The notes under the pieces were generated by a model. That model made no database searches. It was given only the letters and a program-made list of their open reading frames with translations, and was not told the DNA's origin. A stretch of 64,000 bases of DNA from Elsinoe ampelina (taxonomy: Eukaryota), in NCBI GenBank assembly GCA_010093995.1, contig ML992501.1, positions 1,518,566 through 1,582,565 on the forward strand, in the 5' to 3' direction. The position numbers and the translations under genes are program-made. The stretch's first letter is position 1; each line of letters opens with the position of its first letter. Of the stretch, positions 40,753 to 64,000 are shown one piece after another.

Positions 40753-40955
40753 TGTTAAGAATATAGCTCTCTCTAGATAATTAGGCTATAAAGTTATATA
40801 ACCTTAAGTTATATAATGCTAAGGCCTAGAGATTTATAGCTGTTCTTTCTTCTAGTAGATAGACTCCTTTTAATCAATTAACTCGTCTATTACCTAACTA
40901 GTGTACGATTAGTTCTATATAATATTCTACTCCTAAACGTGCCTTCTACTTAACA
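40753..40955 (+). repeat. Copia 5' LTR
   Basis: TG...CA ends; near-identical direct repeat at 51853-52055. Confidence 0.92.
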
Positions 40956-43900
40956 GGTTATAAGCCTAGAGCTATAGCACAAGTATAGGATTATATATAC
41001 CGTAGTTAAGTATCTACGTTATTAAAATTAGGCCGGATTCTATTAGTATTCTCCTCCGTTCCCTCTCTATTATCTTAATCTTAGATAGATTAGTAGAGGC
41101 AGTATAAAGTGTAAAAGACTAGTTACTTAGTACATTAAGTAGGATATAATTAAGACGTCTACTATAGATTTATTTCTATAATTGTATAATAGCTACTATT
41201 TATTAGCTATAAATAACTAAACAACTTTGTTTTTATTAATTGTTTCTTCTAAGGCTAAGCTAGCCTTATTAACTATATTAACTTAAAGGTTATTAACCTC
41301 TAGAACTTAACCTTTATCTATTTATTTAATTTTTATTCTCCGCTATAGATATATTATTAATTAGAAAGCCTATAGCTAAACTTAGCTATAAAAACTACAA
41401 GCACTAGTTTAGTATAATAAAATTATAGCTTAAGATAAAAGAAGTTACCTATATCTTTAATAATAATATAGCTAATCTTAATTTACTATTATTATTAATA
41501 GCTTCTTTATTAAATATACTATCCTCCTTAACTACCTCTATACTAATTACTTAGTCCTAGTATTTACTATAGACTAGAAAGGCTAATATCTTTTATCTAT
41601 ACTAGATTAAGCTTTATATTAACTATAAGAATAACCTTCTTATCTAAGGCAAGATAAGAGTAAGGTAGGTATAGAATATACTTAAGGCTAAATATACTAA
41701 GAGGCTTATATCTATAGGTAGGTAGCTTATAAAGGAGTTCTCTAACTATACTATATTAGAGGAGACCTCTATTATAGAAGCCTAGGTATATCTAACTTAG
41801 CTAGTAAGAAGGATTATCTATATTATACCTAAAGCTAGGTAGATAGAACTCCCTATTACTAAGCTATAGTAACTTCTTAGTACTCTCCTAGAATCTTAGT
41901 AATCTATTAGAGATAGTATCGATATCTAGCCTAGGCTAGATATTAAAACTATCCTAAGTATTCTAAGAGAGAAAGAGAATTAGAGGAAGAAGCTAGATAT
42001 AGTAATATTTATAAGAGGTAGACTATAATAAGGAACTAGTAGGAGCTTAAGCTATATATATATCTTATATAAGGAACCTAGATATACTATTTCTAGGTGT
42101 CCTTGTCTCTAATAAGCTAAGAAGTATATCTAGCTATTCTATAGAGTTACTAAAAGGAGTAGCTCTATAAGGAAATAGTTACCTAAATATTAGGAACTAA
42201 TTAGACTTATAAGGTAGCTTACTAAGAGGATAGACTCTCTTAAAGTAGCTAAGTTAAAGAGGAAAGGTAAAGCCTATCTAGCTACTAAAGGAGGTCTATT
42301 ATTAATATCTCTATCTCTACTACTAGAAGTCCTTTCTAGTAATAAAGAGCTTAAGACTACAGGTTCTATATTAGAGGTTTAAGGGGCCTATTAAGCAAGA
42401 TTCGTACTTAATAGATCTAGGTTAGGGGGGGTTACCTTTAGTTATAGTTAATAGGAACTATAGTTATTAAGACTAAGAAGGGAGATAAGATAAAGGTATA
42501 GGCTCTTTATATACCTAATCTTAGTATAAATTTAGTCTCCTATTATAAGCTATACTCGGATTTAGAGGTTTCTAGAGTTCTTAATTTAAATTCTTTTCTT
42601 ATCCTTAATTAGTAGAAGTAACTATTACTTAAAGCTAGAATTTAAGGGGGAGTATATATTATCTAATTCCTCTTTAAGTAATTAGCTAATTAAAAGCCGT
42701 ATTCTAGATCTAAGCCCAGCTTAATTCTAGATCTAGCTAATTAGGATTTAGTATTCCTTACTACCTAGCCTATAATTATATTATAGACTAAGTATATATA
42801 TCTAACCTAGGATAAGTAATAAGAGAATCTTATTAACTTAGGACCTAATAACTCTAAGATAGAGTATTAGCTCTAGTATAGGAGATTTACTTACCTTAGG
42901 ATTAAGAAGCTTAAGGATCTTTATAAAGTTATAACTCTTAAGAAACCTATTAACTTAAACTATAATCTATCTATTCTATATAAGGTCTATTCCCTTATAA
43001 AGATAAGAAATAGAAGAGGTAAAACCTTATAAAAAAGACCTAAGGTTCTTTAGCTTATCTATATAGATATCTATAGTCCTATTAAAGTAAGTAAGGAAGG
43101 ATTTAGATACTTCCTTAAGCTTATAGATAGCTACTTAAGAATAATATAGATTATACTACTTAAGATAAGAGATAAAGCCCTATAAAGGCTTATTAAGTAA
43201 AAGCTAAGAGTTAAGAAGGAGAGTAATACTAAGGTTAAGGTTACTAGATTAGATAATACTAGTAAACTTAATAAGATCCTAAAGTAGTAAAAGCACTAAG
43301 AAGACATCTATTACATAACTACTAAGCTATATAATTTAATTTAGAATAGACTAGTAGAGAAAGGTATCTAAACCTTAGAGAATAGTATAAGAGCAATACT
43401 TAAGGACTTAAAGATGCTAAATAAGTTCTAGCCTAAAGTAGTTTAGGTAGATATATATCTAAGGAATAAGATAGTAACTAGACCTATAATTAATAATAAG
43501 TAAGTTATATCTATTAAGGCCTATATAGGCATTAAGCTATTAGTTAATTATATTAAGGTCTAGAGCTATAAGGTATATACCTATATAAACCTAAAGTTCC
43601 TTTCTATATATAGAAGAAAAGATAAGCTTATAGACAGAGAGAGAGTAGAAGTATTCCTTAGCTATATAGATAGATCTAATAGGATATATAAGATATAGGC
43701 ACCTAATAGGAAGGTAGTAATTATATTACTAAATATTAAATTCTCTAAGTTTAAGAAAGGTAGTAATATTAATCTTAGTATTAGAATTAATACTATAAGT
43801 AATTAAGTACTAGTTAGGAGACTAGTTAGTAGACTAACTTAGATTTAGACTAAGGTTAGATCTAGAATAGACTAACTAAATTAGCCTATTTAGAATAAAG

Positions 43901-44657: not shown

Positions 44658-45007
44658 GTTATAAGGGATAGACAATAAGGCACCTTAAGACTTAATTAAA
44701 CCTACTATATAGATAATATACTATAGAGGCTTAATATAACCTCTAATAAGGTTACTCTAATAAAGTAGCTAATAGACAATAAGCTTCCTTAAAGAGCTTA
44801 GGAAGATAATATAAAGTATAGTAGAACTAAGTACTTATATACTATTAGAAGCTAGATATACCTTAGTACCCTAATAAGGCTAGATACTACCTTTGCCTTA
44901 GGAAGGCTAAGTTAGTTTATAGTAGATCTAATAGATAGTTATACTATTAAAATAAAGAGAATATTAAGATATATTAGATTAACTAAAGATCTTAGTATTG
45001 TATTTAG

Positions 45008-48000
45008 TAATTACAACTAGTAAGATAAGAGGTTAATTACGTCTATTTATTAAGATATTAAGACTTAGAAGAAGAAGAAGAAAAGCTAGTATATAAAGCA
45101 CATATAATATCGAGAGTAAAGTAGCTAGAAGCCTAGGCTATAATACTAAGATTACGTAACTAATCTAAACTAGTTCCTAACTAAATCTAGTTCGTATCTA
45201 TCTCGTATTACTACTCTCTCTCTTAAGCGCGTTTACTCTTAAACACTATTATACATTATTTATTAATCTATTTCGGTCTTAGCTTATCTATATAAGAGTC
45301 TAGATAGTCGCGTAGTACGTTAGCTACTCCTTTAAGGTTGTTAATTAGCTACTAGATAAGATTCTCTAGATAGCTCTTCTAGCTTATATAAGTAACTAGC
45401 TTCCCTTATAGTATATATATGTTAATTACGTTATCTACCTTATACTCTTCCTTACTATCGATCTCTACTAGAGGTAGTTCCTTAAAGGCTTAGCCTAGTA
45501 GAGAGTTATTCGGGTACTTAGTAAGAAGGTTAGCGTAGAACATAGAGTAAATCCTTTATAGAGTAGCTAGTAGATCGAGCTTATATACTAATAGCGACTG
45601 TTTTTCGAGGATCTTATAAGAACTAACATACTTTAGTAGTAGCTTTAGATTACTCTATAGCCGAAGGTTTTTTGTTAATAACTACACTAAATCGCTAGCT
45701 TCGAACTCTATTAGCTAGTAGTGTTTGTTAGCTTACTCTACTATTCGTAACTAAGCGATAGTAAGGTTAGCTTTAGTAATAGTAAGGGCTTCTTCTAGTT
45801 GTTTAGTAAGCGCGCGAATTTCGGCCTTATTAAGCTTAGCTCTTATTAATAGTACGTCGGTAGAGAGCTAGAAGCTTATTCTTAGCTTATATTCTCTAGT
45901 TACCTTAAATAGTAATAGCTTAGTACTTTCCGAGGGGTTAGCGTTTATAGAGAACTCTATAACTAGTAGAACAAGGGTCTAATTACTAAACTGTGTTATA
46001 TAGAATCGAATAACTCGTTTAAACTCTTAGTTTATAACTTCTAATTAGCTATCTATTTAAGGGTAGCTAGCGGTAGATAGCTTAGCTATAATCTTTAGAA
46101 TCTAGTAGAGTCTCTTCTATACGTCGCTAACGAACTAAGAGCTATAGTTAGAGGTAATACTATCTAGTAGGCTATATAGTTTCTATACGTAGAAGAATAA
46201 TAGCTTAGCTATCTCGAATATAGAGGTTCCTTCTTCTCTCTAGAAGTAAGAGATTAAGTGTCGCTTCTTAGACAAGCGATCGACAATATATAGCACTATA
46301 TTATAGTTATCTACTAGAGGTAGGCTAGTAACGAAGTCTATAGTAATATGTTACTAAGGCCTTACTAGAATAGGTAATAGCGATAGGAGGCTAGCTAGTA
46401 AGCTATAGCGAGCCTTTAAGCGCTTATAGTTGTAATAGTTAGCTACGAATCTCTTAACAAAGTTGTTATAGCTTAATATATAAAAGGTAGTCTTAATTAT
46501 AGTAGCCGTTTTAGTAGCTCCTCTATATATATAGTTCTTCGATATATAGACTTCTTAGATAACCTTTATAGCTATTAACTACAGTATAAATAGTTAGCTA
46601 GCAACCTATAATATCCCTTTATTAATAGTAACATCGCTCGATAGTAGCTATTTCCTCTTTAGGAAGGCCTCTATTATATAGTAGATGCCTCTAACTATTT
46701 TACACTTAGCGTCTTATAAGTTAGCTTTAGCTACTTCTTCGAAAAGGGGTAAAGGTTCTTCCGCGACTAAGATAGGTACTACGTAGATACCTAGTTTAGC
46801 AGCCGAAATAGGCACTAATATAGGTAGCGAAATAGGAGGCAAAATCGGTAGCGAACTAGATAGCGAACTAGTCTATAAACTAGATACTAAACTAGATCTT
46901 AGTTCGGCTTAGATTAGTAATCTAGTTTAGATGCGACCTAGATTTAGTTCGTCGATAATGTACTAATCTAGCACCTTATATAGTAGTAGTGTCTAGCGTA
47001 GATTAGAGTCTTCTCTTAAACGTAGTATATCTCTATTCCTTCTCGTAAGTATATTAGCCTTACTATTAGTAGCGCTAGGCCTATATATAATCTTAAAGTT
47101 AAACTACGCGAGGTAGAGGGCCTAGCGTACTTAGCGGCGTAATAGCTTCTAAGTCTTTATAAAGTGCATTAAGAATTAGTAGTTAGTAAGGATATAGATA
47201 GCCTTATTAAATTAAGTACTTATAAGCTTAGGGGCCTATTCCTTAAAGGCTTAGATAATTACTAGTAGTTCCTTGTCGTAGATAGCGTAGTTATATTCGG
47301 CTTTATTTATAGATTTACTAAAAAAGGTAATAGGCCGAAGAATGTTAGACTTATCGTATTATAATAGAATTCTAGCAGTAGTAGTATCGGAGGCGTTAGT
47401 CTTAAGGACTATCTACTTCGAGCGATCGAAATACATAAGGATAGGCGTACTTATAATAGTGTACTTTATGTAGTTAAATACAGTAGTATACTTATCGTTC
47501 TATAGTATAGTATCCTTCTTAAGAAGATTATTTAGTAGCTTAGCGATAGTACTAAATCCCTTAATAAAGTAGCAATAGTAGCTATAGAAACTAATAAAGC
47601 TTCTTACCTAAGTAGTGTTACTAGGAGCTAGCTATTTCTAGGCTTATATAGCTTCTATCTTCTTTAGATCTATTTTAACTCTATCTCGGCCAATAATAAT
47701 ACTAAGATACTTTACCTCTATTAGGTAGAACTTACTCTTCTTAATATTAGCGTTTAGGCCTAATTCGTAGAGCCTCTAGAGTACTAGCTTAATATACTTA
47801 GCATACTCTCGGTAGGAGCCGTTTATATAGATAAGAATATTATCTAGGTAGATCGACACAAAGCACTCTAGTATATTAACAAAGTTATAATTTATAAACC
47901 TCTACTAGACTATAGGGGCATTAGTAAGGCCGAATAGTATTACTAGCTACTTAAAGTTGCCTATATATATAGAGAATATAGTAAGATCTTTACTATCGAT

Positions 48001-51000
48001 AGAGTTATAGAGGTAGTAGAAGGCTTAATAGATATTAATCTTACTAAACTATTTAGCCTTACTTACGCGCGTAAGTATTTCTTCGATAAGAGGTAGAGGA
48101 TAGACATCTTACTTAGTTACCTTATTAAGGCTATAGTAGTTAACGTAGAGATAAAGTTCTTTACCTAGCTTATAAATAAAGAGAATAGGTAAGGAATAGC
48201 TAGTAGAACTTAGTGTAATAAAGCCTTTATTAAGATATTCTTAGATAAATTATTCTACTATATTAAGTTCTTCTAGCGATAGGCGGCGTAAAGGCTCTAT
48301 ATATAGTAGCTTAGCGCTATCTTTAAGTATAATATAGTTGTCGAAATCCGGCCGATACTAAGGGAGCGTATTAGATTATTCTTTAGAGAAGACGTTAGTA
48401 AACTCCTATAACTCCTCTAGAAGGACTACTATAGGATCTAGTTCTAGCTTAGAGGCTATCTAGTAGTAGTCTTTAATATTCTTTACTAAGATTATAAACA
48501 CCTTATTCTCTTAGTATTTAGCTACTAATATAAAGGTAGTAGCGCTAATAAAAGCGATAGTTAGCTCTTCTTACTTAGTGTTACTTACGTAGGTAGGTAC
48601 GTAGGAGAACTTATACATTAACTAAGTACTATAGGAGATTAGCTTAAACTCTCTCTAATTTAGCTTAAAGTTCGACCTAAGAGCTAGCAGTCGATATAGT
48701 TTAGTTCGCTCTATCTCGGTAGCTAAGCTAGGACCTAGTTTACGTATTAAACTAGGACCGAACTAATTCTAAACTAAAATAGCAGCTTTGCCGAGCTAGA
48801 TTCCTAGATCTAAGCCGGGCTTAGATCTAGATTCTAGCCTTTTAATTAGCTATAGTAGCTCCTACTTAACGACTATTAGCGAAAACTCTTCTTTGTATAT
48901 AACTCGGCCGTACTTATAGTCGATAGTAGCTCTATTAGCCTTAAGCTAGCTAAGGCCAAGAATAATGTTAAATCGGCTAATATCTATAATACGAAAGGTA
49001 GTAAGGTTATTTAGCTTACTAGAAACAGTAGTAGTAAGGGGAATACTATATATAACTTACTCTATTAGAACACTATTATAGGCTTAAAGCTAAATAGAAC
49101 TAGCTAGTACTACGGGGTAGCCGAAGCTCTTTAGCTTATTAAGAACGTTATAATTAACTATAGCGCTAATAAGCGCGCTAGTATCGATAAAGGCTTAAAG
49201 TATAATAGTACGCGAGTAGTTATAGGGGTCGTAAATAGTAATAGAAGTTATAATAGCGGGGATATAGTAGCTAATAACACTATTTAGTAACTATATACCT
49301 CCGGATCTATCTCGAATTACTCTTATTCTACTAGAGAATAGAACTCGTCCCCTAGCTACTCGTTTCTCTAGCTAGAGAAACTAGTAGGCTTATAGTCTAT
49401 TTCGGGGTTAAACTAAGGCTTAACTAGATCTAGTTCGTAAGCCGAACTAGTGTCGACCTAGTTACTTAACTTAGCTAAGCGATTCTAGAGCTACTATATC
49501 TCCTTTATAGCGCTAATACGTATAGGGCGTATAGTAGTATAAGTAGCCTTCTCTAAGGCGCTAGCTATATACTTAGTAGAGATATATCTAGGCTTGCTAT
49601 ATACGTAATAGGTAAGTGCTAGAGCTAGATAGAAAGGCTACGAAGCATCTCTAGTAATAGAGTAGAAGGTAGATAGAGCTATAGGTATAGAGGTAGAATA
49701 AGGTACGTAAGTAGGTATAGTAGCGGCGCGGCTTATAGCTAGTATAGAACGTAAAGCCTAAGTGCGCTTAGTAATAAGGTTATTCTATTAAATGTTATAG
49801 TCGGTAGCGTAGGCCTTAGTAATAAAGGCAGTAAAGTTATTAGTATTATAGTTAACTAGAGTATCGCGTAGCTTGTTAGATATCTTCTAATAGATCTAGT
49901 ATAGCTACTTCTCTTTAGCGATCTTAGCGTAAAGGGCATACTTATTAAACTCGCTAATAAAAGAGTTAAATGTACTATTACGCTAGAAGAGGTTAGTAAA
50001 CTAAGTATATATAGTAGCTCTATAGTTAGGATTCTTAAAGCACTAGGCTAGGAGAGTAAGAACCTCTTTAACGCTAATAACGTTATTACTAGCTAAGTCT
50101 ATAATAAGGGTATAGGCTTCTCTAGAGAGGTATAAGTATAGATAGGCGAACTAGGTGTCCCTCGTAGAGAAATAATCTATATTAGTATATATCTTATTTC
50201 TTATCTAGTACTTAAAGACCTCGAACTGCTCTAGTGTACCTATACTAAAGATAGTAGAGTCTAGTATCTTTTCTAACAAGGTAGAGCTACGTATAGAAAG
50301 GGCTAGTATACTATACTCTATCTCGTTTCTTAGTTAGTCTACCTTAGCCTTAAGCTCTTAGATTTTGTCTAGGTAGTAAGTAGCTTAGGTAGTAACGCTA
50401 TTAGTATAGGACTAAGATACGTCTAGTTCGAATTAGAGGTTACTGAGCTAGGCCTAAGTAGTATCTAACTTATAGTAATAGTAGAGAGCGTTAGTATAAG
50501 TGCCTTTTACCTACGTAGTCTACTTATTATAGAAGGACTTAATATAGTTAAATACGTCTCTTAGTGCCTATATACTATACTCTTCCTATAGCTTCTTAAG
50601 AAGTGTAGCGTTAGAGAGGGTAAAAAGATTATAGTAAGGGGAGTAAATAGGGGCGTTATTATTGTTAGGGATAGGTTAAGGTAGCTTACTTTAGTAGCGC
50701 TCTTCATCGCTATAGTTAGATCAAGCTATACTTAGCATAGTTAGTCGTAAATAAAACAGTATAAAAAGTTAATACGTAATAAAGGGAATATTAAAATTTT
50801 TAGCTAGTAGCCTACTTCCTTTAAGAGTTGTCTATAACTCGACTTATTACCTTCTTCTTATATCTTCGAAGTTTATAGTATTAACCTATATAGTAGTAGC
50901 AAGGATCTATTACAGTGTACGCGGGAACTATAGTTATAATAGCTTCTTCTTTAATTCTTTAATTCTTCGTAAGTAGTAGTTATTAGTAGTTACGTAAGTA

Positions 51001-51269
51001 GTAGAATAACTAGATAGTTTAATAGCTCTATTACTCGGTCGTAGTCGTTTCGAAGTCTCGATATAGTAATTATAACTAGTAAGACAAGAGGTTAATTACG
51101 TCTATTTATTAAGATATTAAGACTTAGAAGAAGAAGAAGAAAAGCTAGTATATAAAGTACGTGTAATATTAAGAGTAGAGCAGCTAGAAGCCTAGGCTAC
51201 AATACTAAGATTACGTAACTAATCTAAACTAGATCCTAACTAAATCTAGTTCGTATCTATCTTACATTA
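45008..51269 (-). mobile_element. Ty3/Gypsy (chromovirus-like) LTR retrotransposon 1, nested in the Copia pol region, RIP-mutated
   Basis: 203-bp LTRs 45008-45210 and 51067-51269; TSD TTTAG (45003-07, 51270-74); minus-strand PPT next to 45211. De-RIPped motifs: protease FIDTGA (~49185), RT IYLDD (~47845), RNase H TDAS and YDKELL, integrase WQHITMDFVTGLP (~46340), chromodomain-like end (~45300-45450). Confidence 0.92.
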
Positions 51270-51852: not shown

Positions 51853-52055
51853 TATTAAGAATATAGCTCTCTCTAGATAATTAGGCTATAAAGTTATATA
51901 ACCTTAAGTTATATAATGCTAAGGCCTAGAGATTTATAGCTGTTCTTTCTTCTAGTAGATAGACTTCTTTTAATTAATTAACTCGTCTATTACCTAACTA
52001 GTGTACGATTAGTTCTATATAATATTCTACTCCTAAATATGTCTTCTACTTAATA
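51853..52055 (+). repeat. Copia 3' LTR
   Basis: Direct repeat of 40753-40955, preceded by a purine-rich PPT-like stretch and followed by the TSD GAAGC. Confidence 0.92.
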
Positions 52056-52280
52056 GAAGCGTATATAGATAGATTTAAGAGTTTTTCGCCTATATAAGGC
52101 TAGTCTTTTCTAGTACCTATAATTTTCTAGTCTTAAAAGATATAGAATCTAGTTCTAAATCGAATAGTACTAGAAAAATTAATAGTTTAATAGATGTAGT
52201 AATAAATTCCTCCGAAAAGTAATTTTGTAAAAAATGTTATAGGTGTTTAAACTAGCTACCTTATAGCTTAGCGACGCTAA

Positions 52281-55200
52281 TGTTACGAACTAGTAGGACA
52301 GCTAGAGCGCGGGGATGTTAGGACTAATTAAACTGCTAAGGTTATTACGTAACTCGGCCTAATATTTACCTAGTTCTCTATCTTCCCTAGCGGCTCTACC
52401 TCTAAAACTATAGAGCGTATAGGTTACTAGCGGACGTGTACTCTATACTACTTCTAACTCTCGCTATAGAGTATATAGAGTATATAGAGAACGTAGTAGA
52501 GAATATATATATATAGAAATAGTCCTTACCTTATATAAGTACTATAGTTAACCTTGTCTAGATAGCGAACACTAGTATTACTAAGGCTAGCCTTTATAAT
52601 ACTATCTAATTGTACTTTATTATCTATAAGATATACCTTCTCTAACTCTTACCTTAGTGCTATACTACTATAGAAGTAGAACTACCTCGTTCTTAGCTTA
52701 GCTTAGACTACTAGCGTAGACTATATTTAGACAGTTTATAACATTTTAACTACCCTTACTATAGTATAGCATACTATAAGGTTAATAAGTAACTCTTGCT
52801 CTAAGTTACTATTAGTATCTTTAATTACTAGTAAGCTAGAAAAGCTTACTATTAATAATATGTCTACTACTAGTTTAACCTCGGGTAAATATAGAAGGTC
52901 TCTTAGTATAGGGGAAGAATAGAGTAAGCCTAAGTTAGAAGTAGAACTCTTCTATAAGAACTGCGCCTACTTAAGGCGCTTCCTTATTTAACTTAAAGCC
53001 TTCTTCGCTCTAGAGGGGGACAAGTACGCTAACGATGTAGTAAAGGTTCTCTACGCTAGGATATACCTTAAAGGCGCTACCTTCGGGTGGTTTAAGCCTT
53101 ACATAAGTAGCTACCTAGATAGATAACTAAGCCTAGATATAAAGGCTATCTTTAAGAGCTTTAGTATCTTTTAGGCAAAGATTAAGCAAGTCTTTAACGT
53201 ATCTAATAAGAAATATATCGCTATAACAAAGATCTAACAACTATAACAACGTAGGTCTATAGCCTAGTACTATTTCTAGTTCTAACAACTCGTAATACAC
53301 CTAGATTAGGATAATAGTACTAAACATTTAGTATTCTACTAAGGACTAAGCGACTTAGTTAAAGACTAAATAATACCTAAGCTACCTAATAGCCTTTAGG
53401 AATTAGTAGACACTATAATTGCTATCGATAATAGACTTTACAAACGACATATAGAATGTTATAGAGGATATAAAGTAAATACTAGATATATATATTCCTC
53501 TCGAAACTATAGAGACTCTATAGAACTTAACGCTATATACGAAGGCTGCCCCTTATAGGTATAAGGCCGAAGCTATAGAGGAAAGTTCCTTAGTAGAAAA
53601 GAGAGAGAGAAGTATAAATAAGACAATCTATATTTTAAGTGTAAAAGACCTAGGTATCGGGCTAGAGACTACTAATAAGGGGTGCTAGCCGATAGATTAT
53701 ATATAATAGTTACTAGGCTAGTAGAAAAAAAGGCTAATACTACTATAGAAGACCTAATAACCTTTAGCGTAGGTAAGGAAATATAGAAGGAGTCTATAAC
53801 AACTTAAGAGGTAATAGAATCCTCTCTAGATATTATACTTAATATCTCTACGACTAATAGCAAATAACAAAGCTAATATGTAACACTATTATAGATAGTA
53901 TACTATAATAACTCTTATTATATTTACTTATTAGATAAGTAGGGATCTAGTTAGTTTCTATATAAGCTATCTAAGTATAGGTAACTAACGAAATAGCTAG
54001 ACTAGGAACCTAACCTAGAAGAGCTCTCTATAATTAGTAGTAATAGTAACTAACCTTAGAAGATAGTTAGCAACAATTACTAATATATAATTATCGAGAC
54101 GAAGTATTAGGACGTAAGTACTATATAACTATATAGTAGCCTTACCTTTAGCTCTTATAGTAAACTATAAGGAAAGGTATATTATATATCGCTCTAGAAA
54201 TGTACAAATCTAGATTGTAAATGGTACTATACTATCTACTTATATAATGTACTTAGAGAAGACGCTATTAGTCTTAAATACACTATAGACTTCTTAGTAA
54301 TCGAAATAGACAGTACTATTCTCTATAGCTAAGTACAAGAATATACTTAGTATAGCCTTACTAACTATAACTATACTAGAGACAGTAGTAATAAAGAGAA
54401 ATATAATAAAGAATACACTAAATAACTATACTATAATAACATAGATAAAGACTTATCTAACAATAAAGACAACGATATACTACTACTAAGCGGACAACTT
54501 AAGGCATACTTTATAGAGATATAGAGAAACTATATAATAATATATATCTACTACTAGAATAGGACACAATAAGACAAATCTACTTAACTTACGTTTATCT
54601 TTAATACTAATATATAGCTATACCTAGAGGGAATAGTTATACTAATATAGGTGTGTAATACCACTTAGTATAACTAATAGAGGATTATTAAACTTTATAG
54701 TCATTAAGGAACTTAAGCACTAGAAGTCTACCTTACTATATTAAACAATAATAAGACACGACTAGCCTAGTAGATATAGTACTAACAATAGATATATACG
54801 GGAAGGAATTAACTACTTATCTAAGGGGCTATAATAATAAAAAACTAACTAGTTGTTGCCTAATAAGGCAAGACAATAACGCTAGCTAAAGCCTTAATAT
54901 AATAAAGATCTATATATTAAATTACTTTATACTAGAAGCCTAGATACAAGGAAATAAGGTAAAAGCGATAATAGATTTAGGAGCTAACTATAGCTATATC
55001 TCTATAACAATTGCTAATTAGCTTAAACCTTATTAACATTAGAAGGAGTTACCTTACCTACTTACTATAGTAGATAGAACCTCTATAGAGAAGAACGGGA
55101 AAGTTACTTAGGAACTATAAAACGTTATAATTTAAATTAGGACATACACGGAGAAATAATTAATTAATATAGTTAATATGTAGTATAATATAGTACTTAG

Positions 55201-58200
55201 TATAGACTAGCTTTAATAACACAATCTAGACGTAGACTAGATTAAAGAAACACTCGAATTTCCTAAGTATAATTATAGGACATAGGGAGTATAATTAGCT
55301 CTATAGATACTAACTATAAGAATAGTATAGGTACGACTAATAGTTAGGGCTATTACTAGCGTAAGTAATTAAGTACTTCTACTAGAATATAAAGACTTTA
55401 AGGACTTATTTAAAGAAAGGAAAGGTATTATAGCCTTACTCTAATATAAACTATAGAATTATAAAATACCTTTTAAAGAGGGTAAATCCCTAATATACTA
55501 TTATAGTCTTATACTACTATCGAAATAAGAGGAGAATGTCCTTAAGAACTATATCGATAAGCACTTATTTAAAGGATTTATACGACTATTAAAATTACCT
55601 ATTATATACGGAGTGCTTTTTACACCTAAAAAGGATAGAATGTTATAAATATATATTAATTACTAGAAACTTAATACACTTACTAGGAAAAATTGCTATT
55701 CCTTACTAAGGATTAACAAACTTTAAGACCGACTACTTAGAGCTAAATAGTTTACTATAATTAATATTAGAGATGCCTATTATTAAGTACAAATAAAGGA
55801 GAGTAAGGAGTTAAAAACGGCTTTTAGGATATAATAGAGTCTATATAAGTACCTCGTTATGCTCTTTAGGTTAACTAACACTCCTATAACCTTCTAAGAG
55901 TTAATTAATAATACTCTATAAGAATACCTTAATAACTTTGTCTTAGTATATTTAGACAATATTATTATCTTCTTAAAGATATATAATAAACATATAGGAT
56001 ATATTTATAAAGTACTATAGAAACTAAAAGAGAAAGACCTACTAGTAAAACTCTCTAAGTATAAGTTTTATAAGTACAAGATACAATTTCTAAGCTATAT
56101 TATATCTACTAAGGGTATTAGACCTAATCTAAAGAAGATTAAGTTAGTAAATAACTAGCTAGAACCTACTATAGTTAAGGAGGTTTAAGCACTACTAGGA
56201 TTCTTTAACTACTATTATAAGTTTGTTAAAGGATTTTCTAAGGTAGCTACGCTAATATCTAACCTTACGAAAAAGGAAACTAGCTTTATCTTTAACAAAA
56301 AATATAGATAGGCCTTTAAGAAGCTAAAGTTTAGACTTACAATAGTACCTATCTTAGTACTCTTCGACTTAGACTAATAAGCACTACTAGAAATAGATGC
56401 CTTAGACTTTGCAATAGAAGCGTATCTAGCGTAGAAGGACATAGAAGAATAACGCTACCTAATTATATACTACTTACGAAAAATAACTAGACCTAAACTT
56501 AACTACGATATATATAATAAGAAATTACTTATAATTATAGAAGTATTCCGTAAGTAAAGAGTATACCTAGAAGGAATAACCTTACCTATATAAGTCTATA
56601 CCGACTATAAGAACCTTCTATATTAGACAATAACTAAGGTTCTTAATAGATAATAGGTCCGATAGTTAGAAACACTTATAAGCTATAACTTCTAGATCTA
56701 CTATATTAAGGAATTAGAGAACAGCGGAGTAGATGCTCTTAGCTACTAGCTAGATTACTTAAAAAACATAACAATAATAGAGGCCTCTATACTAAAGTAG
56801 TAGGATAGCGCTCTAGTCTATAAGTACCCGAAGGTAGAGTAGTTATATAGCCTTATCTAGGAGCTTATATAAGAATAGAAGAAAGAAGTTATTTAAATAT
56901 ACTATAATAACCTAATAGCGGAACATAGTAGGATTAATAAGACTATTAAGCTTATTATATAAAACTACCTATAGAAAGAACTCCGAAACGACATTAAGAC
57001 ATATATTACTATATATAATACGTGCTATAAGTCTAAGCACTTACGATATAAGCTATATAGCCTACTATAACTCTTACTACTACCTAATAAACTATAGTAA
57101 TTAGTTACGATAGACTTTATAGAACTCTTACTACTATTAGAAGAGCCTCTTATAGGTGTAAAGTATAATAGTATTCTAGTCCTAGTAGATAGATTTACGA
57201 AGTATTACTACTTTATACTATATAAGATAATAGTAACTACTAAGGATATAGCCTTTACCTTCCTTCGAATAATTGTTTTATAATATAGAGTACTATAAGA
57301 CCTAATAACTAATAGAGATAAGCTATTTATATTACAATTCTAGTAATTATTTATAGACCTACTAGAAGTTAAATATAAGCTATCGACCTTCTTTTATCTA
57401 TAAACGGACGGACAAACGAAATAGGCAAATTAAGTACTAGAGTAATATCTATATTACTACCTTAACTACAAGTAGAATTCTTAGGTAACGCTATTACTAT
57501 TCGTAGAGCTTGCTGTTAATAATAGGAAGTTAGCAAATAGAATTTTACTATTCTACGTAAACTATAGAATATACCTAGATCTATACTATAACATACTTAG
57601 AATTAAGCTAATATCTAAGGATACTAATATACTAGTAGCTAATATTAAGAAACTATACGACTAGCTATACTACGATATAGTATTTATATTACAAAGAATA
57701 GTATAGTTTACTAACTAGAAGAGAATTACAGGACTAATTCTAAAGGAGAGAGAGAAGGTTTATCTCCTTAGTAAAAATATTAAGACTAAAAGACTAAGTA
57801 AGAAACTAGACTATACTAAGCTAGGACTTTTTAAAATCCTAGAAAAGAAAAATAAGAACATATATAAACTAGAACTACTAAGACATATAAGGATCTATCT
57901 AGTCTTTTATATATTACTACTAGAGAAAGTACTATAGAATACTATACCTAGACCTATTAAACTAGATAAAGAAACATAGGAGCTATAGTATAAGATAGAA
58001 AGAGTTTTACATTATAAACTTATAAAAGAAAAACACTACTATCTTATTTACTAGAAGGGACATTAGTATAGCGAAGTAATATAGAAACTAGAGAAGTACC
58101 TTACCTCGTAAGTAATTCTAGATTACTAGATTAAGAACCTATCCTAAGTAAACCGACTAGATAGACCTAGCACTTCTAATACTAAACAAAAACGAGAATA

Positions 58201-59301
58201 CTTAAGAAAGATCGCTTAGGTAATAGAAGCACCTTAATTGTTACTAAATAAAGAACTCTAATCGAAGTTAGGCATAAATAATTACTAGTTCTATAGAAGG
58301 ACAGGATCTACTAATAATAGTATTTCCTTCTACTCTAAGACTTAAATATAAGTCTTCTCTAGAGAGATTACTTTCTCTACCTTATTCTCTAACTTTTGTA
58401 TCTCCTTACGGAGCTAAAGCTTATTACCTATAGCTCTCTAACGAGCCTCCTTTACCTTTTTATAAGCCTCTTTAGCCTCTTTTCTAGTAGCCTCTACTAT
58501 AATTAACTCCTTTTATAAACGGATATACTTAGACTATAAGCACTACTATTTCGATTTTGTTACCTAAATATTATAACTTAAGTAGTTACTTACGACATAC
58601 TAGCTATAGATACTCGACTAAATATAGACCTTATAGTCTAGCCTCTTTAATTTGCAATAAGAATAAGCCTATAGTATATTAGTTCCGAATAGTTTAATAA
58701 ACTCTAAGAGATTCTTTCGGGCAGATATACTAGATTTACTATACCTTCGACAACTAGAAGGCATATTTAGTATATAGTATAAGAAGATAAGGAAGGACAC
58801 TTACTTATTAGGACAACTCGATTAAAGGAGGAGAGTAATATTACAAACTAGTAGGACAGCTAGAGCGTAGAGATGTTAGGACTAATTAAACTACTAAGGT
58901 TATTACGTAACCTAGCTCGATATTTACCTAGTTCTCTATCTTCTCTAGTAGCTTTACCTCTAAAACTATAGAGCGCGTAGGTTACTAGCGGACATATACT
59001 CTATACTACTCCTAACTCTCGCTATAGAGTATATAAAGCATATAGAGAATATAGTAGAGAATATATATATATAGGAATAGTCCTTACCTTATATAAGTAC
59101 TATAGTTAACCTCGTCTAGATAGTAAACACTAGTATTGCTAAGGCTAGCCTTTATAATACTATCTAATTGTACTTTATTATCTATAAGATATACCTTCTC
59201 CGACTCTTACCTTAGTACTATACTACTATAGAAGTAGAACTACCTCGTTCTTAGCTTAGCTTAGACTACTAGCGTAGACTATATTTAGATAGTTCGTAAT
59301 A
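52281..59301 (+). mobile_element. Ty3/Gypsy (chromovirus-like) LTR retrotransposon 2, inserted in the DNA transposon left TIR, RIP-mutated
   Basis: 463-bp LTRs 52281-52743 and 58839-59301; TSD GCTAA (52276-80, 59302-06); PPT AAAGGAGGAGAG before the 3' LTR. De-RIPped motifs: gag CCHC (~53630), protease IDSGA (~54970), RT YLDD (~55950), RNase H ETDASD (~56390), integrase, chromodomain YLIHWKG...TWEP (~58040). Confidence 0.93.
58216..58764 (-). pseudogene. RIP-mutated antisense extra ORF of Gypsy element 2: six-Cys Zn-cluster-like motif plus coiled coil (~182 aa)
   Basis: ATG at 58764 in frame with TAA at 58216. De-RIPped reading is approximately CSYCKSKGLDCKVHVQSGICGQCVVSNHSGC followed by an E/K/R-rich helix. 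Confidence 0.6.
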
Positions 59302-59445
59302 GCTAACTAACCTCTCGTTACTAAAATTGGCAGGCTAGAGGTCGAGATTAGTTATAGCTAGATAGCTCTTAATATAGCTAAATCTAGTTAATTTTTAAAG
59401 CTTAAAAAAGGTGTAATAGCTATTAGTTATTAGCTATTAGCTATT

Positions 59446-60434: not shown

Positions 60435-62125
60435 TTAATACTAAGCCTTTATTAAAAATTCTATACTACCTTTACTAACGATAGTAACGATTTATTTAGC
60501 TATATTAACCTCTTCTAGAGTGCTCTCTTTAACCTTAGTATATAGAGAGTATATCTATTAACGCTTAAACTTTAATATCTACTACTTTAGACGGATTAAA
60601 AGACTATCGGTAAAGAGCTAGTTATTACGCTACTAAGAGGCTAATATCTAGTAGATACTCTTAAGGTTATAATCTTTACTTTATAGCTATATAAAGATTT
60701 AATTAAGCGCTCGAGCGTGCCGTTTAAAGGCCTTCTTCTTTAAGAGAAAGGCTTTAAAGTCGAATAGTACCTTACTTAAATCGAATTGTAAGCTAATTAG
60801 TAACAATAGAGGAGTAGCTTATATAGCTAGTTAAGTAGGTAGACTACTTTAAGTATTTATATTATTTATATAAACTGTCGAAGGTAAGGTATTTAAGGCT
60901 AAAGTTAGTAGCAAATCTAGTACTCTTTTAACTATAGTAGCTCTAGCCCTCGACTTTATATAGTTAAGCTAAACGCTTACTATAGCTAGAGGTAAGTCGA
61001 TTAAACCTCTACTATTACGGATTGTAGCACTCTAAGTTATCTTAGCTATAGCATTAATAGGGAAGTACTCTTAGTACTAGTTACGCTAATATAAGCCTAT
61101 CCGATTTACATACTAGATATTATTATACTACCACCTATTAAAGCTTAGCGTAGTATTACTTAACACGCTAGAGAGGCTAGATTACTAGCTTAAAGTTACG
61201 CTCCCTCGAGCTTATTACTATAACTATAACTATAACTATAACTCTAGAGGCCTTAGTATTAACTAATCCAGTAGTAACGCTAGTAGTATATTAGCTTTAA
61301 CTAGCATAGAGAGTAGCCTAATAGCATAAGGAGAAATAACTTATAAGGTTACTATAAGTATAGTTAGAGTAGCTAGCTTAGTAAAGGTAACTATAAGAGA
61401 GATAGAGAGTTATAAGTAGCCTCTATTAATCTAGCTTATAAGCTTATCTACTAGCTTTTCTATATTAGCTAGCTTATCTACTATAAGTTTAAAACTCTTA
61501 TTTTTAGCTAGCTTAAAGTAAGTAGCTATTAAGCTTATATTCTCTAGCTTTAAGAGGTTATCTAGTACATCTTTTACCTTACTCTTTAACTATAATACTA
61601 GCTAACTATAATCTAGTACTAATAGTCCCTTTAGTACTTACTTGTTATAGAACTTCTTACTATTTATACTAGCTATTAGTAGTACCTCTATCTCTATCTC
61701 TTTCGGAACTAGTAGTGTAGCTTATATAGAAGGAGAAGAATTAGCCTCTATTAAGGGACTTACCTTAGCCTCTACTAGTAGTGTTAGTAACGTAGTTATT
61801 CTCTAGCTAAAGGGCCTAATATCTTAAGACTAAAGAAGATTACTTACTTAACTTATAAGAGAAGTAAGAAGGCTAATATTATAAGGGGGCTAAGGATAAT
61901 CTACTACTACCTTCTCTACCTTACTCGCTATAATACTAGAGTTATAGCTAAAGGCTTAGCTTACTCTATATACTAGCTAGATGTAATAATAGTATAGAGA
62001 AGGTAACGGAGTTACTACTAGCCTCCTATTTAACCTTAGCGTAACACTAGACAGTTAATAGCCTCGAGGCTAAGGGGTCTTAAAGCGGTTAGTAGAGGGC
62101 ACTATAAAGAGTAACACCTTTATAG
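60435..62125 (-). pseudogene. RIP-mutated second (passenger) gene of the DNA transposon, convergent with the transposase; unknown product
   Basis: ~1.7 kb between the transposase stop and the right TIR with coding-like minus-strand stretches, a (GTTATA)4 repeat at ~61218-61241 compatible with former Gly-Arg repeats, and a GTATGT...TAG intron-like segment near 61114-61050. Boundaries approximate. Confidence 0.45.
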
Positions 62126-62682
62126 TAAGCACAAATTGGTAGTGAAAAATTGATTAGCTAATTAGATTGCGCGCTTCTTTAGCTTTAACTATTAATATCA
62201 ACGACGACGACGACAATTACAAGCCTCTATTAATCTCGACCTTATACGCTTCACCGCCTGCCAAATTTTGGTGCACGAGGGGCGGTCAGCGTCGCCAAGC
62301 CATGGGGTGGCCAGTTTGAACCCGAAAACCCTGTATAAGCGAAGTCTTTGTATCGAACGGTCTTTGACATCTGAATGGCCGCCACGTCGGCATTGCCGAA
62401 GGTATCTCTACTATCTGCCTCGATATTTACAACGTACATCCCGCTTCAACGCATCGTTGGCTCCATAGGGCGATGGAAGGCATGTGCCATCGACCACTCT
62501 CGGACCGGGACATCACGTCACGCTATAGAGACTCTCAAACTCTCTCGGCCGTATGCTCGCGTGTCACACACGTGCGACTTGCCATGCCTCGCAAGGCTGA
62601 CCGATTCAAGCCATGCTCGAATACATGCCGTGAAGATGATGCTGAGCTCAATATTACAACGATTGTCACGCCACGTGCCGCT

Positions 62683-64000
62683 TCAATCCCGCTTGTGGCC
62701 CACTTTACCTATCTTTCTGAGACCAATCAAGCCCATAGCGAGCGTGAGACCGCAGATGCCAAAGTTGAACCAGAATGCACCAATGTAGCCGTCCATGAGA
62801 GCGTCCGGGGAGTGCTTGTCCGGATACAGTGTCCTTGCCGTAACACTGCTGGCGACGACTGCACTGAGAGCGATGCCTACCGACTTGCCGATCTGGCCAA
62901 CGGTATTGAAGACGCCACCTGCGAGCGCTTGTGTCTTGGCTGGGAAGACGGATGTGATGAGTAGGTTGGCGACTGTGAAGAGTGCATCGACGCCGACTGC
63001 GCTCAGAACATTCGCGATGAAACCAGAGGTCCAGAAGCTCGATGACGGCGTGGCAAATGTCATGGCGAGAGGTGCAGCACAGGTGATGAAAAGACCGACA
63101 TTGACCATGAGATTCGCGGAGATGCGGTGCACTAATGCACCTGCAATGATATTCATGGTAAATCCGACGACAGCAGATGGTAAGAAACGCAGTGATGTCT
63201 GTATCGGTGACAGCTTTTGTACTTCCTGGAAGTAAAATGTGAGTAGCGTCTCGACGCTATTAAAGGTGCCCCATGAGAAGAAGACCACAAGACAGATGGT
63301 AGTGAAGTATCTGTTCTTCCACACCGAATTCGGTATGATCGCAGGCCGACCAAGCTTCTCCTGACGACCAACCCAGAGAGTGAACGCAGGTACCAGAGCT
63401 AGGCCAATGGCAAGCAAGGCGATCGTGCTGGGCTCACGAATATTCCGGGTGCTACCAGTGATCGTGGCGAACACGTACGAGGTCATGGCTAACGATGCGC
63501 TTGCCAATCCAGCACCAACCCAATCAATCTCATGAATGATCTGCTGCCGCTTCTCTTGCCAGGTTAGACTACCGGCACCGGTATTCGGGACAGCCCAGAG
63601 GATCAGCGCGATGTTCAGCGCGATGATTCCTGAGCCGATGTAGAAGCCCGCCCTCCAGGTGACAAACTGCGCCAGCACACCACCTAGGACAAGTCCGACC
63701 ACGAAGCCAACAGGCTGACCAGACCCCAGCACCGCAAAAGCCATGTTACGCTGCTTGCCCACGAATGACGAGGTAATAATGCTGACCGCACTCGGTAGGC
63801 AGAACGAGATCGCAACCCCAGTCAGTCCACGAAACAGAACAATCTCGAAGCCATTTCGTGACAGACCACATCCTAGTACAAAGCCAGTCTGGAGAATGGT
63901 ACCCCAGAGATACATCATCTTCGACCCGAGAGCGTCGCAAATTGAGCCCGCAAGGAGAAGCGTGCAACCACATGTGAGAGCCGGTATCGCCACAGGCCTG
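62683..64000 (-). CDS. MFS drug:H+ antiporter-type transporter (14-TMS DHA2/Atr1-like), 5' part outside the window
   Basis: LLLAGSICDALGSK motif A, FRGLTGVAISFCLPSA, WRAGFY, IDWVGA and AGGVFNT; many hydrophobic helices. Confidence 0.92.
   Translation of the reverse strand, partial: RPVAIPALTCGCTLLLAGSICDALGSKMMYLWGTILQTGFVLGCGLSRNGFEIVLFRGLTGVAISFCLPSAVSIITSSFVGKQRNMAFAVLGSGQPVGFVVGLVLGGVLAQFVTWRAGFYIGSGIIALNIALILWAVPNTGAGSLTWQEKRQQIIHEIDWVGAGLASASLAMTSYVFATITGSTRNIREPSTIALLAIGLALVPAFTLWVGRQEKLGRPAIIPNSVWKNRYFTTICLVVFFSWGTFNSVETLLTFYFQEVQKLSPIQTSLRFLPSAVVGFTMNIIAGALVHRISANLMVNVGLFITCAAPLAMTFATPSSSFWTSGFIANVLSAVGVDALFTVANLLITSVFPAKTQALAGGVFNTVGQIGKSVGIALSAVVASSVTARTLYPDKHSPDALMDGYIGAFWFNFGICGLTLAMGLIGLRKIGKVGHKRD

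Follow-up and report, generated by a model that had tools for sequence, protein, structure and literature searches.

The stretch of Elsinoe ampelina DNA analysed here, hereafter the window, covers 64,000 nucleotides of contig ML992501.1 (positions 1,518,566 to 1,582,565 of the forward strand) and contains a complete long terminal repeat (LTR) retrotransposon that encloses, between pol and the 3′ LTR, an additional frame on the strand opposite to gag-pol. The element lies within a 27-kb AT-rich block (35001-62000), where the GC content falls to 20-38%, compared with ~50-58% at 1-35000 and 62001-64000. This block bears the footprint of repeat-induced point mutation (RIP), as seen both in dinucleotide indices (a TpA/ApT of 2.05 and a (CpA+TpG)/(ApC+GpT) of 0.17 across 35000-62000, against 0.58 and 1.28 across 1-35000) and in the transition differences between copies. 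TG..CA ends of the LTRs, a 5-bp target-site duplication, a polypurine tract and a pol that aligns with chromodomain-bearing relatives place the element among the Ty3/Gypsy chromoviruses (Table 1). Comparison with intact relatives confirms that the antisense frame is the remnant of a real third gene of this Gypsy lineage, conserved in place and orientation.

The antisense frame starts with a minus-strand ATG at 58764-58762, just inside the polypurine tract and 74 nt inward from the edge of the 3′ LTR, and runs for 183 codons interrupted by 18 stops (13 TAG and 5 TAA), making the window copy a dead pseudogene. Reading the minus strand directly thus bears out the coordinates and content given for this frame in a preliminary description of the same DNA. 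That description had also placed ~600 nt between the chromodomain and the polypurine tract; the spacer is present, with a length of roughly 700 nt when counted from the end of pol similarity at 58075. The stops had further been called RIP-type, and all of them are indeed TAA or TAG, but this property does not discriminate, as all six frames of 58216-58764 carry 16-21 stops in 182-183 codons, with not one TGA among them. Neither is the stop count of the antisense frame the lowest, and its longest open run is 31 codons vs 51 in another frame. Because the six frames are alike in stop density and type, stop statistics cannot single out the antisense frame. Translated with an X at each stop (query P0001), the frame has no match in Pfam and none in a word-index protein search. 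These results would suit a chance or compositional (shadow) open reading frame (ORF) in AT-rich RIPped DNA, with no gene behind it.

What lifts the frame above chance is its homology to intact proteins. A phmmer search with P0001 against 1.84 billion representative proteins returned seven matches at E ≤ 1e-3 (best 9.2e-14), all 175-211 residues long and collinear with the query, six of them intact and the seventh (P0008) RIP-like. The six intact proteins share the pattern MP..C..C......C[KR]VH[VI]RSG.C..C.......C[DN][VI][RK][VI]T..EW.RL, followed by a long charged stretch. P0008, a database entry of 195 residues, has Tyr at four of the six Cys columns and again in place of the conserved His; it is evidently a gene prediction made on a further RIPped copy. 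Searching with a profile built on the six intact proteins (A3) retrieved 51 family proteins, none with a precomputed Pfam domain, and the named entries are all called 'hypothetical protein', save a 124-residue entry from Lithohypha guttulata that carries the UniRef label Zn(2)-C6 fungal-type domain protein. In the ESM Atlas, the family is spread over clusters of 'hypothetical proteins' with 140, 122 and 62 members, the commonest phylum being Ascomycota. Of 54 family proteins, 50 (all but P0008 and three short fragments) went into a family hidden Markov model (HMM), which the window frame matches with 66.3 bits; across all six frames of the window, the model has a single match, minus-strand 58312-58752 (E 4.7e-19), with the runner-up at E 0.93. 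Likewise, five of six tblastn matches of the family to the window fall on the antisense gene, the sixth being a match of 26 residues elsewhere (E 0.003). Longer or fused forms of the family (385-2000 residues) were looked for and none found, which is weak evidence, and a scan of viral contigs gave 67 pattern matches, none of which was confirmed. Such specific homology, taken with the conserved synteny (24 of 28 loci) and the purifying selection (dN/dS, the ratio of nonsynonymous to synonymous substitution rates) described below, leaves the chance ORF with practically no likelihood, and it was rejected. For annotation, the lesson is that homology can recognise a RIP-ruined frame where stop statistics say nothing.

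By reversing RIP, the preliminary description had arrived at a six-Cys pattern in the encoded protein, two CxxC pairs each followed by another Cys, and the alignment with relatives vindicates it. Of 50 relatives, 49-50 have Cys at each of the six columns, which are spaced C-x2-C-x6-C-x8-C-x2-C-x6/7-C and are invariant in all 22 sequences of a smaller set; at one locus, L028, the second Cys is separated from the third by x8. In the HMM alignment, the window codons at these columns (34, 37, 44, 53, 56 and 64) read TAT, TGC, TAT, TAT, TAT and TAT, so that one Cys is kept; RIP would be expected to turn TGY into TAY through a G-to-A change. Some of the stops tell a similar story: opposite codon 169, 45 of 47 relatives have Trp, and opposite codons 49 and 117, Arg is present in 48 of 50 and 45 of 50, respectively, all residues whose codons RIP-type transitions can convert to stops. 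No second copy of 58100-58840 was found within the window itself. When two DNA runs of one sample were aligned to 57500-58900 at 80% likeness, 3173 and 2129 contigs matched, covering 30 of 30 bins, and the element family is therefore highly repeated in that genome. Among 40 of the 148 variant places, those that were listed, the differences between genomic copies are almost all transitions. Within the same 40, assigned to codons by hand, other copies restore residues of the family, with CGA (Arg) at codon 84, a stop in the window, CGT at codon 75, a nearly invariant Arg, CTC (Leu) at codon 76, and GAG at codon 137, which completes the AVEE motif.

The setting of the gene is as conserved as its sequence. 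Scanning metagenome contigs with the A3 profile yielded 28 loci, which have a GC content of 46-56% and are therefore not RIPped. In 24 of these, the C-terminus of pol lies on the opposite strand and abuts or overlaps the 3′ end of the antisense gene; the four exceptions are two contigs of ~1.0-1.1 kb that are too short to tell (L003 and L026) and two loci without pol (L006 and L007). Ten long neighbouring ORFs were scanned, of which eight are pol, with protease, RVT_1, RNase H, integrase, SH3_Tf2-1 and Chromo domains, and two are gag, with Retrotrans_gag. On the other side of the gene, 26 loci were scanned for the inner LTR edge, L007 and L023 being set aside as duplicates; 22 of them show it, recognisable as TAACA followed by a complemented G-rich polypurine tract, 44-113 nt ahead of the ATG. 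The window and 24 of the 28 relatives thus have in common an antisense gene placed after pol and before the 3′ LTR. Since un-RIPped relatives keep the ORF, its place and orientation, the six Cys and the long helix, the earlier claim of a third ORF outside the canonical gag-pol layout stands. L006 (4673-7086) and L007 (7551-9964) carry one and the same 2.4-kb element, with two 330-nt LTRs that are 95% identical, gag and the antisense gene, and no pol, which looks like a non-autonomous derivative that has kept the third gene. Separately, the contig ends of L005, L013, L015, L019, L024 and L027 show terminal overlaps of 123-174 nt at 99-100% identity; because those of L013 and L024 fall inside pol, this suggests that such contigs are circular collapses of one LTR and the internal region.

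Selection on the gene can be read from these loci. In 26 of the 28, no stop interrupts the frame through the Cys module and the helix, L020 and L026 breaking after ~80 codons, and 23 coding sequences were compared once the duplicates L007, L024 and L025 and the two broken frames were dropped. Between L014 and L015, there are 4, 4 and 38 differences at the first, second and third codon positions (dN/dS 0.03), and between L019 and L027 there are 10, 12 and 42 (dN/dS 0.10); more distant pairs give a dN/dS of 0.07-0.20 with dS saturating. Substitutions biased to third positions and a dN/dS of 0.03-0.20 mean that selection acts on the protein. With pol values of 0.05 for L014/L015 and 0.11 for L019/L027, the antisense gene is as constrained as pol and is under purifying selection on its protein sequence. 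The dN/dS comparison in intact relatives, which the preliminary description had proposed as a check, therefore supports the ORF, and the un-RIPped relatives have lost neither the ORF nor the Cys codons. The gene and pol are arranged tail to tail, and their 3′ ends overlap by 26-95 nt in six of the eight loci compared (L005, at 638-732, L010, L015, L018, L028 and L004), with no overlap in the other two (L025 and L027). This overlap would fit the idea that the antisense RNA is the functional product, damping pol/gag or feeding RNA silencing, and that the ORF is incidental, a possible role for such ORFs that is raised in reviews (in the excerpted text of PMC7264820). However, the selection on the protein makes a role of the RNA only very improbable, and the six Cys and several motifs are invariant across sequences that are just 30-50% identical.

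The protein itself has a regular architecture across the 50-member alignment. Following an MP start, a helix-forming segment (SST.RR..L..FI..FG) leads into the Cys module, which has VH.RSG between the third and fourth Cys and VT..E[WF].RL thereafter, and then come a long charged segment with LR..MD and AEEAIAVEE and an acidic/aromatic tail, L.LSP.TWSA.EG.PD.FW. AlphaFold2, run on the family member P0003 with the family alignment, predicts helices at 17-31, 40-45, 59-64 and 75-156 with a mean predicted local distance difference test score (pLDDT) of 81. The helices at 40-45 and 59-64 start at the CxxC pairs, and the long helix at 75-156 reaches a pLDDT of 94-98. Compared by Foldseek, the full model has Zn2Cys6 DNA-binding domains at all of ranks 1-19 and a model of the N-terminal domain has them at all of ranks 1-15; these are weak matches and include Pho7, Hap1, Leu3, Gal4, Ppr1, Put3, Cep3 and Lac9. 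The Cys spacing of the Pfam family Zn_clus (PF00172), C-x2-C-x6-C-x5-12-C-x2-C-x6-8-C, is likewise that of the relatives. Among the Zn(II)2Cys6 factors (Gal4, Pho7, Hap1, Leu3, Put3, Ppr1), the likeness extends to the Cys spacing, a predicted helix right after the cluster and restriction to fungi. What sets the family apart from these factors is a conserved additional helix at the N-terminus and the absence of a Pro preceding the fourth Cys; its proteins are shorter than 220 residues, lack a fungal-specific regulatory domain, have a helix of ~80 residues and are encoded by a retrotransposon.

A dimer is predicted for the family protein. When two P0003 chains were modelled together with four zinc ions, all three runs reached a score of 0.50 and the best of three controls one of 0.00; the partner pLDDT was at least 70, and the runs agreed with one another in at least 63% of contacts. 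The mark used for calling a dimer is one that 21 of 30 proteins solved as pairs reach and none of 23 solved as single chains, and it carries a caveat for eukaryotes; the P0003 prediction also had a small molecule in it. In the modelled homodimer, the interface spans residues 71-144 and the contacts (109-109, 123-88 and 130-81) run antiparallel. An antiparallel pairing would put a long distance between the Cys modules, one at each end of a rod estimated at ~100 Å, and such a rod, if correct, would suit the bridging of two separated sites.

How the gene might be expressed is indicated by its distance from the LTR. With the ATG 44-113 nt from the LTR edge, there is no room for a promoter outside the LTR, and we infer an LTR promoter for the antisense gene from this distance alone. 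Two sequencing runs taken to be RNA gave no contig on 57500-58900, which speaks neither for nor against such a transcript. In the un-RIPped U3 regions of nine loci (L001, L004, L005, L008, L013, L015, L019, L024 and L027), within the 150-250 nt that precede the ATG, a CTATATAC box is conserved. Between this box and the LTR edge, the same loci have one or two TCACGTGA boxes and short inverted-repeat arrays, of the form ACTGAGCA/TGCTCAGT in some loci and GAGAGCA/TGCTCTC in others. These boxes and inverted repeats are candidate sites for a dimeric factor, and their layout resembles an upstream region common to two divergent transcription units.

We place a probability of roughly 60% on the reading that the window holds the RIP-killed third gene of an ascomycete chromodomain Ty3/Gypsy lineage, whose intact protein is a zinc-binding, dimeric, nucleic-acid-binding regulator. 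Under this reading, an antisense transcript would be initiated on the U3 side of the 3′ LTR and run inward, and the intact protein of ~175-210 residues would bind two zinc ions per chain, dimerise and enter the nucleus. The dimer would then bind nucleic acid, most plausibly the LTR of the element itself, and once bound there would set the transcription or copy number of the element. The existence of the gene, its conserved place and orientation, purifying selection on its protein and the pseudogene state of the window copy are established by the comparisons above; zinc binding, DNA binding and, as in the preliminary description, the LTR promoter and the regulatory role are inferred.

Several results weigh against such a regulator, and part of them favour another kind of protein. 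The two Zn_clus scores listed, 12.1 and 11.2 bits, do not reach the Pfam gathering cut-off of 21 bits, and Zn_clus appears at E ≤ 1 in only 11 of the 50 members (best 0.0071), fewer than the 19 of 50 in which the unrelated Cys-rich FpoO gives a weak match. A profile search of the PDB puts the coiled coil of Gfh1 first (E 0.014), ahead of Leu3 (0.15) and Lac9 (0.84). The pairing in the predicted dimer is antiparallel, unlike that of the Gal4-type factors, which have parallel coiled coils. Within the innermost 150 nt of the LTR, only 6 of 22 loci have CGG-N4-8-CCG, which is therefore not a consistent feature, and pairwise identities of the antisense gene follow those of pol weakly (Pearson 0.52 and Spearman 0.17, for 66 pairs from 12 loci). 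The failed Zn_clus threshold, the antiparallel dimer and the scarcity of canonical CGG palindromes would all be easier to accommodate if the gene, while real, encoded a retrotransposition accessory factor, for example a zinc-dependent binder of the element's RNA or complementary DNA, of integrase or of chromatin. In that case, spacing or bridging would be the task of the long antiparallel helix, the protein having a role in particle assembly or integration, and the 2.4-kb element of L006/L007, which keeps gag and the antisense gene without pol, fits a protein that is needed in cis or together with Gag. We consider this main rival rather unlikely. DNA-bound Zn2Cys6 domains are the only structural neighbours found, and the conserved acidic/aromatic tail is of a kind that resembles activation motifs. 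As to the module, the Cys spacing and structural neighbours fit and the Pfam sequence threshold is failed, and we therefore describe it as apparently Zn2Cys6-like and not as a member of Zn_clus. The likeness to a zinc cluster with a dimerisation module, as first put forward for this locus, accordingly holds for the spacing, is suggested by the predicted long helix and the weak Foldseek matches, and falls short on the Zn_clus threshold and the antiparallel predicted dimer. Other N-terminal Pfam matches of the family, also below threshold, are to DUF3716 (3 of 50 members, best E 0.005) and DUF5651 (12 of 50, best E 0.0048).

A bolder version of the regulatory reading, possible if doubtful, is that an ascomycete chromovirus clade carries its own miniature Gal4-type dimeric zinc-cluster activator. 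This protein would be made from an antisense, LTR-driven transcript and would bind the U3 repeat arrays, making the LTR a self-regulated bidirectional promoter.

The rest of the host element is likewise RIP-mutated (Table 1). The main frame of gag-pol has 189 stops in 1823 codons, and when these are masked as X it matches the Pfam models RVT_1, two RT-RNase H models, Integrase_H2C2 and SH3_Tf2-1; in the same scan, the Chromo and protease HMMs were not reached in the RIPped pol. The pol of L004 is 48% identical to the window by tblastn, with residues 60-1140 of its 1165 aligned to 54833-58075. Nearby, a second RIPped Gypsy-like element occupies 45002-51269, with LTRs at 45002-45210 and 51061-51269 that are 93% identical and pol similarity on the minus strand (48426-46972). 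It has no homologue of the antisense gene detectable by tblastn or by the family HMM run over the window. A 202-nt direct repeat, 97% identical between 40755-40956 and 51855-52056, also lies in the AT-rich block, its copies being 11.1 kb apart and the second just upstream of the element.

Table 1. Features of the chromovirus and its antisense gene, in positions of the window
Feature	Position	Strand	Basis or remark
Target-site duplication GCTAA, left	52276..52280	.	Identical 5 bases at 59302-59306
5′ LTR (TGTTACG...TATAACA), RIP-mutated	52281..52743	+	~91% identity to 58839-59301
RIP-degraded gag-pol	52760..58150 (end approximate)	+	Pfam matches on X-masked frame; tblastn with pol of relatives
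Reverse transcriptase (RT)	~55637-56104	+	Within gag-pol; Pfam on X-masked frame
RNase H	56294-56686	+	Within gag-pol; Pfam on X-masked frame
Integrase zinc domain	56876-57040	+	Within gag-pol; Pfam on X-masked frame
SH3_Tf2-1	57752-57931	+	Within gag-pol; Pfam on X-masked frame
Chromodomain-like end of pol	~57983-58115	+	
RIP-inactivated antisense third gene	58216..58764, homologous core 58312-58752	-	183 codons, 18 stops
Long charged helix / predicted dimer interface region, ~codons 66-150	58315..58569	-	HMM alignment; AlphaFold2 helix and dimer of P0003
Six-Cys module, codons 34-64	58573..58665	-	Alignment; Cys in 49-50 of 50 relatives at these columns
Polypurine tract AAAGGAGGAGAG	58824..58835	+	Read directly; 3 nt before the 3′ LTR
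3′ LTR	58839..59301	+	Pairs with the 5′ LTR; inner edge is the U3 side
Target-site duplication GCTAA, right	59302..59306	.	Direct repeat of the left copy

Extra antisense ORFs have been described in LTR retrotransposons of plants and in Boty, none of them with an assigned function in the excerpted text of one review (PMC7264820). In the plant Gypsy elements Grande, RIRE2, Retand and PvRetro13, antisense ORFs termed aORF-3R lie between pol and the 3′ LTR (excerpts of PMC7264820 and PMC11963269); most copies of a given family retain them, and they are suspected, though not proven, to be regulatory (same excerpts of PMC7264820). The window gene has the same position and orientation, and its conservation resembles that of other proteins of the element, as is the case for aORF-3R, given the values for the gene and pol set out above (0.03 and 0.10 vs 0.05 and 0.11). 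Compared by description, the plant ORFs differ in belonging to plant, non-chromovirus lineages and, in the passages concerned, in having no zinc-cluster-like module. Boty, of Botrytis cinerea and Sclerotinia sclerotiorum, has an antisense gene, brtn, between pol and the 3′ LTR, with function unknown (excerpts of PMC7264820), and brtn is also mentioned in passages of PMC8365987, its preprint and PMC4227169. As described there, Boty resembles the window element as a fungal chromodomain Gypsy element with an extra antisense gene between pol and the 3′ LTR; the comparison is one of position and orientation, and these passages mention no Cys motif or coiled coil. An 'additional ORF with unknown function' is also drawn in some fungal chromoviruses, according to the excerpted part of Novikova et al. 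(2010, PMC2864245). Among the phmmer and profile matches of the antisense family, no match is named brtn. The brtn gene of Boty-like elements is reportedly treated by Zhao et al. 2011, Virology 417:248.

In the literature searched, no relevant zinc-cluster reading of an antisense gene from a fungal retrotransposon was found. A parallel for the proposed logic exists in HBZ of human T-cell leukaemia virus type 1 (HTLV-1), an antisense-strand, dimerising basic leucine zipper (bZIP) regulator that is transcribed from the 3′ LTR. By analogy only, the window family may follow the same scheme of an antisense regulator expressed from the 3′ LTR of a retroelement; HBZ is a bZIP protein and not a Cys cluster, belongs to a vertebrate retrovirus and has no homology with the family.

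The window family is an antisense accessory gene, a known sort, with unusually concrete predicted biochemistry. The features that it offers to experiment are a module like a zinc cluster, a helix predicted to dimerise and an acidic tail, in dozens of intact, diverged copies. If the protein is a regulator borne by the transposon, it would reveal the means by which a fungal retroelement governs its own LTR, and the function of an antisense ORF would become directly testable. Should the bolder version also be true, a miniature Gal4-type factor of this kind could rewire host genes beside insertions and provide a mobile source of the fungal Zn2Cys6 repertoire.

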